39,390 nt of DNA from Escherichia phage HF4s. Shown here piece after piece: positions 23,955 to 37,263 of the stretch. The DNA lies in the sequence record MT833387.1, one strand, 5' to 3'. Positions within the stretch are counted from its first letter, which is position 1. Each line of letters starts with the position of its first letter. The notes beneath the pieces are model-generated. The model had not been told where the DNA came from and did no database searches. It saw only the letters and a program-made list of their open reading frames with translations. Both the position numbers and the translations under genes were made by a program.

Positions 23955-24248
23955 TCAGTCATTACTGATAGCGCCATAGCGTGAGCGGTAATTACGCAGG
24001 CGCGGGTCAATTTCAGGGAAGTGGGTATATGTGGCTTTGCGGAATGGTCGGATTGATGTCTGGTAAATTCGCTCGCGTTCTTCTTTCTCTGCAAGCCATA
24101 TACAATGGCGAAATTCCTTTTCCTCTTTCGTTTCCTGCGGTAGCGACATTATCCGATCGTAGTTTTTTCTGAATTTATCCAGCACCTCCGATACGGAATT
24201 GCCGGAACAGCGGCGCGCGTCATCCGCACCATACAGAGGCGCTGGCAT
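23955..24248 (-). CDS. hypothetical protein (Abc-position, possible anti-RecBCD)
   Basis: 97-aa ORF downstream of the erf-ssb pair; function inferred from position only. Confidence 0.4.
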
Positions 24249-32841: not shown

Positions 32842-33262
32842 AATTCGATCCCCAGCACATCAGCAAAACGCTATTCACGCAGTACAGCAAATTCTTCCAG
32901 ACCCAACCAAGCCAATCGTAGTGATCATTCAGGAGCGCAACCGCAGCTTAGACCAGAACAGGAAGCTATGGGCCTGCTTAGGTGACGTCTCTCGTCAGGT
33001 TGAATGGCATGGTCGCTGGCTGGATGCAGAAAGCTGGAAGTGTGTGTTTACCGCAGCATTAAAGCAGCAGGACGTTGTTCCTAACCTTGCCGGGAATGGC
33101 TTTGTGGTAATAGGCCAGTCAACCAGCAGGATGCGTGTAAGCGAATTTGCGGAGCTATTAGAGCTTATACAGGCATTCGGTACAGAGCGTGGCGTTAAGT
33201 GGTCAGACGAAGCTCGACTGGCTCTCGAATGGAAAGCGCGATGGGGAGATCGGGCAGCATGA
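32822..33262 (+). CDS. ninB: NinB recombination protein
   Basis: 146 aa, near-identical to lambda NinB. Confidence 0.92.
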   Translation: MKKLTFEIRSPAHQQNAIHAVQQILPDPTKPIVVIIQERNRSLDQNRKLWACLGDVSRQVEWHGRWLDAESWKCVFTAALKQQDVVPNLAGNGFVVIGQSTSRMRVSEFAELLELIQAFGTERGVKWSDEARLALEWKARWGDRAA

Positions 33263-33786
33263 CTATCAAATCAAATACGCCAGCACACGACAAGGACTGC
33301 TGGCAAACGCCGCTTTGGCTTTTTGATGCACTGGATATTGAGTTTGGATTCTGGCTGGATTCGGCAGCGAGCGACAAAAATGCTCTGTGTGCTCACTGGC
33401 TAACTGAGGCCGACGACGCGCTAAATTCTGAGTGGATAAGCCACGGTGCAATCTGGAATAACCCACCGTACAGCAATATCAGGCCGTGGGTGGAAAAAGC
33501 CGCTGAGCAGTGCATACAACAGCGACAGACGGTAGTTATGCTTGTGCCAGAGGATATGTCAGTCGGATGGTTCAGCAAGGCTCTGGAGAGTGTCGACGAA
33601 GTTCGCATTATCACTGATGGACGGATTAATTTTATCGAACCATCGACAGGGCTGGAGAAGAAGGGAAACAGCAAAGGCTCCATGCTGCTGATTTGGCGAC
33701 CGTTCATCAGTCCTCGACGGATGTTTACTACCGTATCCAAAGCGGCATTGATGGCGATCGGGCAGGGCGTCAGGAGGGCGGCATGA
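33259..33786 (+). CDS. phage DNA N6-adenine methyltransferase (Dam-type)
   Basis: ~175 aa with NPPY catalytic motif (IWNNPPYS); start overlaps the ninB stop. Confidence 0.75.
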
Positions 33787-35321: not shown

Positions 35322-35970
35322 TGGCAGCAAATACCGAAATATTTGGGTAGTTGGCGATCTGCACGGATGCTACACGAACCTGATGAAAAAACTGGAGACG
35401 ATAGGATTCGACACCAAAAAAGACCTGCTTATCTCGGTTGGCGATTTGGTCGATCGCGGTACAGAGAACGTCGAATGCCTGGAATTAATCACATTCCCCT
35501 GGTTCAGAGCTGTACGTGGAAACCATGAGCAAATGATGATTGATGGCTTATCAGAGCGTGGAAACGTCAATCACTGGCTGCTTAATGGCGGTGGCTGGTT
35601 CTTTAATCTCGATTACGACAAAGAAATTCTGGCTAAAGCTCTTGCCCATAAAGCAGGTGAACTTCCGTTAATCATCGAACTGGTGAGCAAAGGTAAAAAA
35701 TATGTCATCTGCCACGCCGATTATCCTTGTGATAAATACGAGTTTGGAAAGCCAGTTGATCATCAGCAGGTAATCTGGAGCCGCGAACGAATCAGCAACT
35801 CACAAGACGGGATCGTGAAAGAAATCAAAGGCGCGGACACGTTCATCTTTGGTCATACGCCAGCAGTGAAACCACTCAAGTTTTCCAACCAGATGTATAT
35901 CGATACCGGCGCAGTGTTCTGCGGAAACCTCACATTGATTCAGGTACAGGGAGAAGGCGCGTGGGCATAA
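35299..35970 (+). CDS. ninI: Ser/Thr protein phosphatase NinI
   Basis: [24 protein letters not shown]... with GDLVDRG and GNHE metallophosphatase motifs, as in lambda PPase. Confidence 0.9.
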
Positions 35971-36479
35971 GAGAACTAAACCTCACCAAAGAGCAGCACG
36001 AGTGGCTGAATGGCTGGCTTGAACTGTGGGGCGCATGGGTTTATTCAGGTCGTCTGGAAAAGCGCATGAGCAGCGTAATAGCGAAGTTCATGGAGAGCGT
36101 AGAGCCGGGAAGAGTTATGACAAGGCCAATGTGCAATGATGATGATGGAATGTTGATTTCTCAGGTCGTCGATTCCGTCATGTACATCGACAAAAAAGCC
36201 TTTGGCATCCTCCTCAGCTACTACGCTCATGGTTCATCTAAGCGAGCAATTGCATCCTACTATCACGCGACTGCAAAGCCACGCAAGATGTGTGGACGTG
36301 GTGGCGAGGGATGGAGAAAACCTTCACTGGCAACCTGTAGAAACGAAATTGACGACATCCTGAAAGCGTCATTATTTGTTTTGTACCAACCAATGCAAAA
36401 TGCTTTCAAAATGCGTAAACGTGTTGAGAAAGTTAAGCATGTTGCTGTTAAAAACCTTGACATGCAATTAGCCATTTAG
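35961..36479 (+). CDS. Q: late-gene antiterminator Q (QuuD / phi21-Q type)
   Basis: 172 aa immediately upstream of the late leader and lysis cassette; shares LxxWGAW and PxCxDDD motifs with DLP12 QuuD-type Q proteins. Confidence 0.65.
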
Positions 36480-36496
36480 CCATAATTAGAGGGTAA

Positions 36497-36537
36497 GCTG
36501 CCGTTAGTGACTCTTAAGTTGCAACGGTGGCTTTTTT
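36497..36537 (+). terminator. tR'-like intrinsic terminator
   Basis: 9-bp stem with two G-U pairs followed by a T6 run, 18 nt after the Q stop. Confidence 0.55.
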
Positions 36538-36541
36538 ATTT

Positions 36542-36616
36542 GGGTCAGTCGTATAAAGGTCATTACGGAAGGCTGTTAACCTTCTTATCGTGGTTCGAGT
36601 CCACGCTGTCCCGCCA
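36542..36616 (+). tRNA. tRNA-Asn (anticodon GUU), phage-encoded
   Basis: Cloverleaf by hand: acceptor GGGTCAG/CTGTCCC (one mismatch), anticodon stem GAAGG/CCTTC with loop CTGTTAA, T-arm CGTGG-TTCGAGT-CCACG, encoded CCA. Confidence 0.55.
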
Positions 36617-36621
36617 AATAT

Positions 36622-36697
36622 GCTGGTTTAGCTCCAATGGTAGAGCAGTCGCCTTGTAAGCGAATGGGTAGCGGTTCAAGTCCGTTAACCAGCACCA
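36622..36697 (+). tRNA. tRNA-Thr (anticodon UGU), phage-encoded
   Basis: Perfect 7-bp acceptor GCTGGTT/AACCAGC, D-arm GCTC-CAATGGTA-GAGC, anticodon loop CTTGTAA, T-arm AGCGG-TTCAAGT-CCGTT, encoded CCA. Confidence 0.6.
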
Positions 36698-36939
36698 TAA
36701 CTGAGCCGTAGCCACTGGCTATCCTGAATTCATCAGTGATAGTTACGCTGCGGCCTTCTACACATGACCTTCGTGAAAGCGGGTGGCATGAGGTTGCGCT
36801 AACAACCTCCTGCCGTTTTGCCCGTGCATATCGGTCACGAACAAATCTGATTACTAAACACAGTAGCCTGGATTTGTTCTATCAGTAATCGACCTTATTC
36901 CTAATTAAATAGAGCAAATCCCCTTATTGGGGGTAAGAC

Positions 36940-37263
36940 ATGAAGATGCCAGAAAAACATGACCTGTTAGCCGCCATTCTCGCGGCAAAGGAACAAGGCA
37001 TCGGGGCAATCCTTGCGTTTGCAATGGCGTACCTTCGCGGCAGATATAATGGCGGTGCGTTTACAAAAACAGTAATCGACGCAACGATGTGCGCCATTAT
37101 CGCCTGGTTCATTCGTGACCTTCTCGACTTCGCCGGACTAAGTAGCAATCTCGCTTATATAACTAGCGTGTTCATCGGCTACATCGGTACTGACTCGATT
37201 GGTTCGCTTATCAAACGCTTCGCTGCTAAAAAAGCCGGAGTAGAAGATGGTGGAAATCAATAA
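36940..37263 (+). CDS. S: holin, lambda S type with dual start
   Basis: 107 aa, essentially identical to lambda S ([22 protein letters not shown]...); upstream stem-loop as in lambda. Confidence 0.95.

Follow-up and report, generated by a model that had tools for sequence, protein, structure and literature searches.

The window, by which we mean the whole 39,390-bp stretch of phage DNA analyzed here, carries two adjacent tRNA genes, tRNA-Asn with the anticodon GUU and tRNA-Thr with the anticodon UGU, in the leader of its late operon. We consider it quite probable that this pair is the late-leader cassette of phage 21 and Sf6, that it provides two functional elongator tRNAs expressed by Q-dependent readthrough, and that its benefits are the supply of a tRNA for ACA codons together with resistance to Old-type nucleases.

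ARAGORN called exactly two tRNA genes in the window, both on the + strand. The tRNA-Asn gene occupies positions 36542–36616 (75 nt with encoded CCA) and the tRNA-Thr gene positions 36622–36697 (76 nt with encoded CCA); the 5-nt spacer between them on the same strand, read off the sequence, is AATAT (36617–36621). These calls and the matches to Rfam RF00005 agreed exactly with the initial annotation, which had placed Asn-GUU and Thr-UGU genes at 36542–36697 and had named tRNA predictors as the check. Against a gathering score of 29, RF00005 scored 55.3 bits (E = 2e-9) for tRNA-Asn and 61.5 bits (E = 4e-11) for tRNA-Thr, and in both cases model positions 1–71 of 71 were matched. The proposed cloverleaves with encoded CCA were likewise borne out by single-sequence folding of both genes, by the Rfam alignments, and by covariation. 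When tRNA-Thr was aligned with six homologs, standard pairs filled 96.6% of the pair cells, compared with 22–49% when the partners were slid, and eight pairs were changed on both sides, i.e., in a compensatory manner. In tRNA-Asn, pairs 6-67, 7-66, and 28-42 were changed on both sides in the homolog from a Klebsiella phage.

The bases expected of elongator tRNAs were also in place. Both sequences contain U8, A14, G18G19, U33, a 7-nt anticodon loop, and a GTTCRA T-loop, and their anticodon loops, CUGUUAA in Asn and CUUGUAA in Thr, are those of host asnT and thrU. E. coli AsnRS recognizes the anticodon GUU and G73, and E. coli ThrRS recognizes G1-C72, C2-G71, G35, and U36. All of these identity bases were found in the two sequences (discriminator G73 in tRNA-Asn; G1-C72, C2-G71, and A73 in tRNA-Thr). 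Each gene has one mismatch, U4·U69 in the acceptor stem of tRNA-Asn and an unpaired G27·A43 in the anticodon stem of tRNA-Thr (GUCGC/GCGAA), a stem in which the CNG motif is absent from both strands. We considered whether these mismatches mark pseudogenes and rejected the idea, as both are kept in diverged homologs with covarying neighbor pairs, the U4·U69 mismatch in the Klebsiella-phage copy of Asn. The Asn/Thr pair therefore consists of genuine tRNA genes, far beyond what chance would produce.

The pair lies between Q and the lysis genes, as the initial annotation had it, and within the late leader, 3' of both PR' and tR'. The late antiterminator gene Q (ORF at 35961–36479, + strand, 172 aa) is of the phage 21 type; its colinear counterpart in Sf6 is gene 59 ('similar to phage 21 Q'), its database matches are annotated as antitermination protein Q, and its 3' end overlaps PR'. 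PR' (36457–36486, + strand) has the −35 hexamer TTGACA at 36457–36462 and the −10 hexamer CATAAT at 36481–36486, matching at 11 of 12 positions in the promoter scan, and the homologous feature of Sf6 is annotated 'P R'''. The direct repeats ATTAGCCA (36467–36474) and TTTAGCCA (36475–36482) sit where phage 21 has its Q-binding element (QBE). The phage 21 record annotates this element together with a start site and the pause element TAAGCTG; by homology, transcription from PR' of the window would start at approximately 36493, and the same letters TAAGCTG are found at 36494–36500.

The intrinsic terminator tR' (36495–36541, + strand) consists of a hairpin at 36495–36533 followed by a T-tract up to 36541. 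Its RNA fold has an energy of −20.2 kcal/mol (z = −3.8), and none of 200 shuffled sequences was as stable; it is the annotated tR' of Sf6 and phage 21 save for one T in the T-tract, and it aligns with the lambda tR' T-tract. The tRNA-Asn gene starts at 36542, directly at the end of the T-tract and about 50 nt from the PR' start. On the other side of the cassette, the right mosaic boundary TAACTGAGCCGTAGCC opens a lambda-type leader (36698–36939, + strand) that is near-identical in alignments with lambda, HK75, CUS-3, Kapi1, and Sf6. This leader runs to the lambda-type holin/antiholin gene S (ORF at 36940–37263, + strand, dual starts at 36940 and 36946, corresponding to annotated Sf6 genes 60/61), the first late protein gene 3' of the tRNAs, so that the cassette lies about 240 nt upstream of S.

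PR' was the sole good promoter in the promoter scan. A promoter belonging to the tRNAs themselves was considered and rejected, as the interval from PR' to the first tRNA is only a 48-nt terminator and as the Kapi1 cassette meets a lambda-type tR' at the very T-tract; because the pair abuts the tR' T-tract about 50 nt from the PR' start, there is no room for one. The tRNAs would therefore be expressed from terminator-resistant, Q-modified transcription, and the anatomy argues for a strict dependence of their expression on tR' readthrough. A literature search for expression data on this cassette in any phage, phage BTP1 included, found none. In the pathway that we propose, the tRNAs would be transcribed only by RNA polymerase passing tR'. 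Such polymerase would be Q-modified and come from PR'; N-type antiterminated polymerase that arrives from the early operon may contribute as well. The 5' leader of the late transcript would then be cut by host enzymes to release the tRNAs: RNase P would make their 5' ends, and their 3' ends would be formed by an endonuclease and subsequent trimming as far as the encoded CCA. After charging by host AsnRS and ThrRS, extra tRNA-Asn(GUU) and tRNA-Thr(UGU) would be available when late proteins are produced.

Both tRNAs are 100% identical to the copies in phage 21 and Sf6 (75/75 for Asn and 76/76 for Thr), and the only difference within the cassette is the spacer, AATAT in the window versus AACAT in phage 21 and Sf6. 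The pair is found at 39591–39665 and 39671–39746 in phage 21 (OL657228.1), and it is annotated at 36065–36139 and 36145–36220 in Sf6 (AF547987.1) as 'similar to phage 21'; its position in both, 3' of the tR' hairpin and T-tract and 5' of the holin gene, is that of the window. The initial annotation had stated that lambda, P22, and Sf6 lack such genes. This was correct for lambda, in whose corresponding late-leader slot no tRNA was found, and for P22, which has none according to PMC8022706, but it was wrong for Sf6. Since Sf6, the closest whole-genome relative (96.4% identity over 58% of the first 25 kb), carries the identical pair, the implied unusualness of the pair in the window is gone. The pair is in fact already known: the records of Sf6 and phage 21 annotate it, and it has been described for SfI, L, and ST64T. 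The value of the present result is thus mainly corrective; it establishes that Sf6-type phages have tRNAs in the late leader and allows the annotation to be transferred without reservation.

The pair was found in 369 of 5426 complete E. coli genomes (6.8%). It occurs behind different Q/PR' modules, of the 21 type in the window and Sf6 and of the lambda type in Kapi1, where the cassette is fused to a lambda-type tR' right at the T-tract; the lysis module that follows the cassette also varies, being lambda S in the window and S21 in phage 21. This recurrence, together with the compensatory changes in diverged copies, points to selection on the RNAs. The cassette has sharp mosaic boundaries, and its slot is filled with other sequence in lambda, HK75, and CUS-3. 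We considered whether this filler is a true tRNA or tmRNA and rejected the possibility: with its thresholds relaxed, ARAGORN still made no call on the + strand, and the Rfam tmRNA match of 20 bits was below the gathering score of 47. In HK75, the element in the slot resembles a tRNA without being a decodable one.

Codon usage was compared with that of a sample of 42 E. coli genes, which served as the host reference. ACA occurred at 17.8 per 1000 codons in the late genes, 11.9 in the early genes, and 5.4 in the 42 E. coli genes, a 3.3-fold enrichment of the late genes over the host sample, and its share of the Thr codons was 30% versus 10% in the host (Fisher p = 3e-15). Asn codons stood at 52.3 per 1000 in the late genes versus 37.7 in the host sample (1.39-fold), with 1.8-fold enrichment of AAU and 1.15-fold enrichment of AAC. 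The initial annotation had suggested that the tRNAs compensate for the codon usage of late genes. The usage data support this for Thr and ACA, whereas for Asn, with an enrichment of only 1.4-fold, they support it weakly.

The cassette might do nothing beyond matching the AT-richer usage of the phage, so that ACA and AAY codons in its abundant late proteins are decoded, with the nuclease resistance of tRNA-Thr being incidental. We regard this explanation as rather doubtful, although several observations speak for it. The ACA bias of the late genes exceeds that of the early genes, 26 ACA and 66 Asn codons per 1000 were counted in the coat ORF, and the GC content of the window is 47.5% versus 52% in the host sample. 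Related cassettes contain added tRNAs for other enriched codons, namely Gly-UCC (GGA) in JLK-2012 and Arg-UCU (AGA) in a Klebsiella phage. The same ACA bias, with no obvious Asn bias, was reported for SfI (PMC3636060), and the authors of the phage L study described its coat gene as AAC-rich (PMC8022706). However, ACA ranks only seventh by enrichment, and the most enriched rare codons, AGA, AGG, and AUA, rank higher without having a phage tRNA in the window. Nor is Asn a limiting tRNA, and its codons are enriched to only a small degree; the E. coli host carries four asn genes. HK620, whose structural genes are approximately 96% identical to those of the window, is without a tRNA between Q and S, and the tRNAs are therefore dispensable for translating these late genes. 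Codon supply by itself would also leave unexplained the two exact Old-resistance features of the tRNA-Thr stem, which are kept in the Klebsiella-phage copy.

These features were defined by Govande et al. (2025, PMC12445682), who reported that P2 Old kills through cleavage of thrU and that tRNA-Thr21 of phage 21 protects Old+Gam+ cells and resists cleavage in vitro. The resistance of Thr21 lies in C28U/G42A and a shortened anticodon stem, and the rescue experiments, in which the UGU anticodon was needed, imply that Thr21 decodes ACA (PMC12445682). The sequence of Thr21 was taken from the phage 21 genome record OL657228.1, and the identity of the tRNA-Thr of the window to Thr21 rests on that record. 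The window copy has U28-A42, UCG/CGA, and the unpaired G27·A43, whereas host thrU has CUG/CAG, A27-U43, and a 5-bp stem; the published features of Thr21, that is, the UGU anticodon, the altered CNG at 28–30/40–42, and the shortened stem, are thus all present. For the Thr copy, the role versus P2 Old has already been defined by experiment on the identical phage 21 sequence, a published function that the initial annotation had overlooked.

Accounts that put defense first can be built on the same data. The cassette could primarily provide resistant replacements for tRNAs that are cut by OLD-family or other anticodon-arm nucleases of competing prophages, with the codon bias raising the stakes. Besides the protection afforded by the identical Thr21, this proposal has in its favor that phage 21 holds both trigger and antidote, that Old also cuts host tRNA-Asn(GUU), although more slowly, and that the authors regard defense evasion as a main reason for phage tRNAs (PMC12445682). 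We nevertheless judge it somewhat unlikely as the primary function in this phage. The trigger of Old is a lambda-type Gam, and Abc2 does not activate P2 Old (PMC12445682). Phage 21 encodes Gam, a trigger of this type, whereas the window carries abc2 for a P22-type anti-RecBCD protein (23955–24248, − strand; Pfam PF11043, E = 5.6e-63, full length) and lacks a Gam-type RecBCD inhibitor, a tblastn search of the window with lambda Gam giving nothing below E = 1.4. P2 old was found in 17 of the 5426 E. coli genomes (0.3%), far fewer than the 6.8% with the cassette, and the tRNAs would appear only in the late phase, once any early trigger has acted.

The avoidance of CNG, for its part, was rejected as a family rule, because the tRNA-Asn of the Klebsiella phage (CAG/CUG) and the tRNA-Thr genes of P1 and Cyrano carry the motif on both strands. 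Other nucleases were also considered as partners of the cassette. A link of PARIS/AriB to Asn or Thr was rejected, since the main text of the Nature 2024 paper does not mention Asn and, among the Thr-prefixed matches listed for that text, none is on tRNA-Thr; in the retron-Eco7/PrrC study and the bacterial Schlafen study, no Asn/Thr link to the cassette was found.

An extension of the counter-defense proposal makes the pair a two-part unit in which the phage tRNA-Asn, too, would be a nuclease-resistant replacement for its host counterpart. Host asnT has CNG on both strands (CGG/CCG), whereas the phage tRNA-Asn is without it (AAG/CUU). The absence of CNG in the phage gene is, however, weak evidence, because a random stem lacks CNG by default, and we consider the two-part unit unlikely. 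If it were true, the pair would counter Old-family anticodon-arm nucleases more fully than tRNA-Thr alone. It would also explain the co-travel of Asn and Thr in lambdoid phages, P1, and Cyrano, including phages without Gam, and the growth defect that partly remains when Thr21 is supplied alone (PMC12445682). Since the phage tRNA-Asn lacks the Old cleavage motif, the proposal gives a testable prediction on the function of the Asn partner. The tRNA-Asn of phage 21 is not addressed in the published work on Old (PMC12445682).

We return to the reading stated at the outset, an Sf6/phage 21 late-leader cassette with two benefits. The first would be a supply of tRNA for ACA, a codon whose sole reader in E. 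coli is thrU, a minor tRNA present in single copy, and which the phage over-uses by approximately 3-fold. The second would come from the nuclease-resistant tRNA-Thr, which may sustain ACA decoding once an Old-type nuclease has removed the anticodon arm of thrU.

Two further explanations dispense with these benefits. In the first, which we consider very unlikely, the cassette is a passenger that rides with the tR'/late-leader mosaic module and brings no measurable benefit to this phage. The sharp mosaic boundaries, the other sequence in the slot of lambda, HK75, and CUS-3, and HK620 without any tRNA would agree with a passenger, as would the decay of the Thr homolog in ST64T, L, and PS3, from which it follows that Thr is dispensable in some lineages. 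Some Stx2c phages, moreover, show 34-nt matches at tR' plus the first 24 nt of the Asn gene, i.e., a mere Asn stump. Against this stand the perfect identity of the tRNAs across phages with diverged flanks, the multiple compensatory substitutions in diverged copies, the intact Asn gene where Thr has decayed, and the presence of the cassette in 6.8% of E. coli genomes. In the second, the cassette would act mainly as a processing device: RNase P/RNase E cuts after tR' would remove the leader and determine where the late mRNA begins and how stable it is, and the tRNAs would be by-products. Such a device would suit the location right after tR' and 240 nt ahead of S and the non-decodable element of HK75, but it is extremely improbable given that the full conservation of the anticodon loops, the identity elements, and the encoded CCA goes beyond the needs of a processing signal, that the identical Thr is implied to decode ACA, and that in lambda and HK620 the same leader is expressed with no tRNAs in it.

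Several known systems invite comparison with the cassette. T5 tRNA-Lys acts against PARIS/AriB and a T5-like tRNA-Tyr against retron-Eco7 PtuAB by the same principle, an uncuttable phage isoacceptor replacing the destroyed host tRNA. The phages in question, however, are lytic, carry large tRNA arrays, and have strong promoters for their tRNAs, and the nucleases, targets, and resistance determinants are others.

The initial annotation had stated that Stx-type phages carry tRNAs in the late leader, and phage 933W indeed has tRNA genes in the corresponding region. Its ileZ-argN-argO genes lie in the Q-controlled late-operon leader, between Q/PR' and stx2 and upstream of the lysis region, and the codons that they decode are rare in E. 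coli. The tRNAs themselves (Ile-CAU, Arg-UCG, and Arg-UCU) are unrelated to the pair in the window, and no 933W-type record was among the full-length DNA matches to the pair. About 430 nt and two terminators separate them from PR', and they have an annotated putative promoter of their own, pT, whereas the pair in the window abuts tR'.

Closer in composition are P1, with trnA(Asn)-trnT(Thr), and Cyrano, with Asn-Thr(-Ser), in which Asn(GUU) is followed directly by Thr(UGU) in the order seen in the window. Their Thr genes are homologous to that of the window (63/76 identical for P1), with compensatory stem changes, but differ from it in keeping CUG/CAG and a full 5-bp anticodon stem, and their Asn genes show generic similarity only (45/76). 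The context in P1 differs as well, the pair being 3' of the C1-controlled ban promoters and outside a late leader.

Salmonella phages L, ST64T, and PS3 have an identical Asn gene in the same slot (PMC8022706 among the sources). Their second gene, named 'tRNA-Leu(UAA)', is homologous to the Thr gene but has diverged from it, with 4 nt deleted from the anticodon arm and C at position 33; ARAGORN made no call for it at default settings, and its Rfam score was 42 bits.

Phage 21 shares with the window the tRNAs, the gene order, and the upstream tR' hairpin. It differs in being a lambda-like siphovirus with Gam and the S21 pinholin lysis genes, whereas the window represents an Sf6-like podovirus with Abc2/Erf, lambda-type S/R/Rz, and a different QBE sequence. 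The likeness is greatest with Sf6, in which identical tRNAs are combined with the same Q type, PR', qut, tR', and lambda-type lysis genes, and in which one spacer base is the only difference that bears on the cassette.

Two tRNA genes and no others were called by ARAGORN in the window: tRNA-Asn (anticodon GTT, 36542-36616) and tRNA-Thr (anticodon TGT, 36622-36697), both on the + strand and separated by a 5-nt spacer (AATAT). The Rfam tRNA model (threshold, 29 bits) was covered end to end by both genes, with scores of 55.3 and 61.5 bits, respectively. The coordinates and anticodons in the initial annotation were exact, and the CCA that it described in each gene was confirmed from the sequence. 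By all computational criteria, the pair is real and functional, and it was already known.

The genome in the window is that of a podophage, Sf6-like and P22-like: its first 25 kb match Sf6 at 96.4% identity over 58% of their length, and it also has large blocks in common with HK620, Gally, and N7. The initial annotation had held that lambda, P22, and Sf6 lack such tRNA genes. This was correct for lambda, in which ARAGORN found no tRNA in the Q-S region, and for P22, which has no tRNA genes (PMC8022706), but not for Sf6: AF547987.1 annotates the identical pair, labels both tRNAs 'similar to phage 21', and gives the same order as the window (Q [gene 59], PR', qut, tR', tRNA-Asn, tRNA-Thr, holin). 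Direct comparison showed that tRNA-Asn (75/75) and tRNA-Thr (76/76) were identical to those of both Sf6 and phage 21 (OL657228.1). Annotations of the pair exist as well for SfI, BTP1, SPN9CC, Kapi1, mEp506, vB_SosS_Oslo, and others. Among 5426 complete E. coli genomes, 369 contained it, with the PGAP labels tRNA-Asn and tRNA-Thr, and the SfI (PMC3636060) and phage L (PMC8022706) papers explicitly discuss it at this position. By its sequence identity, the window pair belongs to the late-leader tRNA cassette of phage 21 and Sf6.

Upstream of the pair lie Q (35961-36479) and PR' (-35 TTGACA, 36457-36462; -10 CATAAT, 36481-36486; 11/12 match). Direct repeats ATTAGCCA and TTTAGCCA (36467-36482) take the place of the phage 21 Q-binding element (QBE), ATTGAGCA/AATGAGCA, implying a different Q/QBE specificity although the window Q is of the 21 type; a similar remark was made for phage L's own sequence (PMC8022706). 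The annotated start site of phage 21 lies directly 5' of the pause element TAAGCTG, and by homology transcription in the window should start at about 36493. The sequence of the tR' hairpin (36495-36533; -20.2 kcal/mol, z = -3.8) is that annotated as tR' in phage 21 and Sf6, and the T-tract of the terminator ends at 36541, so that tRNA-Asn starts at the next base (36542, about +50). Downstream of tRNA-Thr, a 242-nt leader near-identical to that of lambda precedes lambda-type S, R, and Rz. Elsewhere, in the nin region, an ORF (33199-33786, +) carries an NPPY motif (…IWNNPPYSN…), which is typical of N6-adenine DNA methyltransferases.

Because tR' ends directly before the first tRNA and PR' is the only good promoter, the tRNAs would be made only by polymerase reading through tR'. 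Q-modified polymerase that passes tR' would transcribe the pair, and, by analogy with lambda biology, N-type antiterminated polymerase from the early operon would be a second plausible route. Maturation would be expected to use the usual E. coli steps: cutting by RNase P, an endonuclease cut on the 3' side, and trimming by exonucleases.

Comparison of natural variants indicates that the genes are under selection as tRNAs, because these variants carry compensatory changes. The tRNA-Thr of E. coli prophage AMR2684 has U5-A68 in place of G5-C68, and the Klebsiella-phage homologs show compensatory changes at pairs 3-70 and 6-67 (Thr) and at pairs 6-67, 7-66, and 28-42 (Asn). In an alignment of seven Thr sequences, standard pairs occupied 96.6% of the pair cells, compared with 22-49% in slid controls, and eight pairs were altered on both sides. 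Host asnT and thrU have the same anticodon loops, and the E. coli identity elements were all present in the phage genes (GUU and G73 for AsnRS; G1-C72, C2-G71, G35, and U36 for ThrRS). A reading of U4·U69 (Asn) and G27·A43 (Thr) as signs of decay was ruled out, since both are kept in the diverged Klebsiella-phage copies.

Alignments indicate that the cassette is a module with sharp boundaries. In the window and Sf6, a 21-type PR'/tR' precedes the left joint, which lies at the tR' T-tract; in Kapi1, the tR' before it is lambda-type. The right joint is the conserved TAACTGAGCCGTAGCC directly after the CCA of tRNA-Thr. Unrelated filler occupies the same slot in lambda (159 nt), HK75 (205 nt), and CUS-3 (longer), and no tRNA was found between Q and S of HK620. 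Related cassettes further indicate that the slot is an expandable array: JLK-2012 carries Asn-Thr-Gly(UCC), Klebsiella phage ST16-OXA48phi5.2 carries Asn-Phe-Thr-Arg(UCU) downstream of Q (comparison locus L022:270-589), and ST64T, L, and PS3 carry Asn with a decayed Thr homolog. As the initial annotation had noted for Stx-type phages, 933W has late-leader tRNA genes (Ile-Arg-Arg), about 430 nt from PR' and with their own putative promoter.

Several of these relatives have features of their own. The Asn and Thr genes of the Klebsiella phage are clear homologs of those in the window, with an identical Thr anticodon arm including G27·A43. The second 'tRNA' of ST64T (L002:493-565), found also in phage L, PS3, ST160, and others and annotated as tRNA-Leu(UAA) in phage L records, is a diverged Thr homolog with a 4-nt anticodon-arm deletion, C33 for U33, and G37; it gave no ARAGORN call at default settings and 42 bits with Rfam, and probably represents a gene in decay, not a Leu tRNA. 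The Asn gene beside it remains 100% identical. In JLK-2012, tRNA-Thr (L003:493-568) is followed by tRNA-Gly(UCC) (L003:572-646) and then tciA. This tRNA-Thr looks chimeric: its 5' third matches a Thr gene of the phage 21 type, the remainder is 67/76 identical to host thrU, and its anticodon stem is weakened (3/5 pairs). The P1 tciA gene is found about 730 nt downstream of trnT, and in E. coli thrU and glyT belong to one operon; the chimeric Thr and the tciA/glyT arrangement suggest recombination with host or P1-type tRNA clusters. Some Stx2/Stx2c phages, including Nil2 and 2851, retain the tR' T-tract and only the first 24 nt of tRNA-Asn (window 36532-36565), a remnant of this cassette that in Nil2 is followed by an element annotated as an IS285-like insertion. 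In an E. coli E2348/69 prophage (L021), the tR'-tRNA cassette follows different upstream sequence. Instead of Q, the annotation there names the adjoining gene 'HNH endonuclease signature motif containing protein'; this could reflect another kind of antiterminator or an annotation error.

The filler of HK75 (L004:344-548), CUS-3 (L005:343 onward), and lambda (L007:487-645, approximately 44786-44944) is equivalent to window positions 36542-36697 and contains a long hairpin, which is probably a second leader terminator, and another element that ends in ACCCA. A 7-bp helix closes this second element; it reads TGTGGTG/CGCCACA in HK75 and CUS-3 and TGTGCTG/CAGCACA in lambda, a single compensatory replacement of G-C by C-G. 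In HK75 the element is 131 nt long, and its fold has an acceptor-like helix, a D-arm, and a T-arm of canonical form (GCCGG TTCGATT CCGGC), with a long insert. Rfam gave only a sub-threshold tmRNA match (20 bits) and ARAGORN no call on the + strand; the element is possibly a tRNA-like RNA of the lambda-type late leader, in fossil or variant form.

Two benefits of the cassette, codon supply and counter-defence, are both plausible for this phage and are not mutually exclusive. Codon compensation, proposed in the initial annotation, was assessed from codon counts of 17 late and 23 early ORFs and a host sample of 42 annotated E. coli K-12 genes. ACA, which is decoded only by single-copy thrU (PMC12445682), was enriched (17.8, 11.9, and 5.4 per 1000 codons in late, early, and host genes, respectively; late versus host, Fisher p = 3e-15), making up 30%, 28%, and 10% of Thr codons, and Asn codons reached 52.3, 42.5, and 37.7 per 1000. 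However, ACA ranked only seventh among enriched codons, behind AGA, AGG, AUA, GGA, UCA, and CGA. HK620, with structural genes about 96% identical, lacks the tRNAs, indicating that supply is at most helpful and not required.

The pair could also provide nuclease-resistant replacements against P2 Old. According to Govande et al. 2025 (PMC12445682), this tRNA endonuclease cuts out the anticodon arm at paired CNG motifs (positions 28-30 and 40-42), and thrU is its lethal target; cells are rescued by phage tRNA-Thr(UGU) genes, among them tRNA-Thr21 of phage 21, which owes its resistance to cleavage to C28U/G42A and a shorter anticodon stem. The window tRNA-Thr has the tRNA-Thr21 sequence (stem GUCGC/GCGAA, with U28-A42, G27·A43, and no CNG), whereas the host thrU stem is ACUGA/UCAGU, with CUG/CAG. 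Host tRNA-Asn(GUU) is among the more slowly cleaved substrates (PMC12445682), and the CGG/CCG of the asnT anticodon stem is AAG/CUU in the phage gene, suggesting that the Asn partner may be a resistant replacement too. Against counter-defence as the role in this genome, the window encodes Erf and a P22-type Abc2, which does not trigger Old (PMC12445682), and no Gam, the known trigger; P2 old was present in only 17 of the 5426 E. coli genomes, compared with 369 for the cassette. In addition, CNG occurs on both strands in the Klebsiella-phage Asn homolog and in the P1 and Cyrano Thr genes, and its absence is the default state of a random stem.

Compared with known systems, the Stx-phage ileZ-argN-argO genes are likewise tRNAs in a Q-controlled leader but are non-homologous, and P1 and Cyrano have the Asn-then-Thr order and a homologous Thr in common with the window. 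Within the class of Old-resistant phage tRNA-Thr genes, the window Thr has every defining sequence feature but differs in context: phage 21 has Gam, whereas the phage studied here does not encode the trigger.
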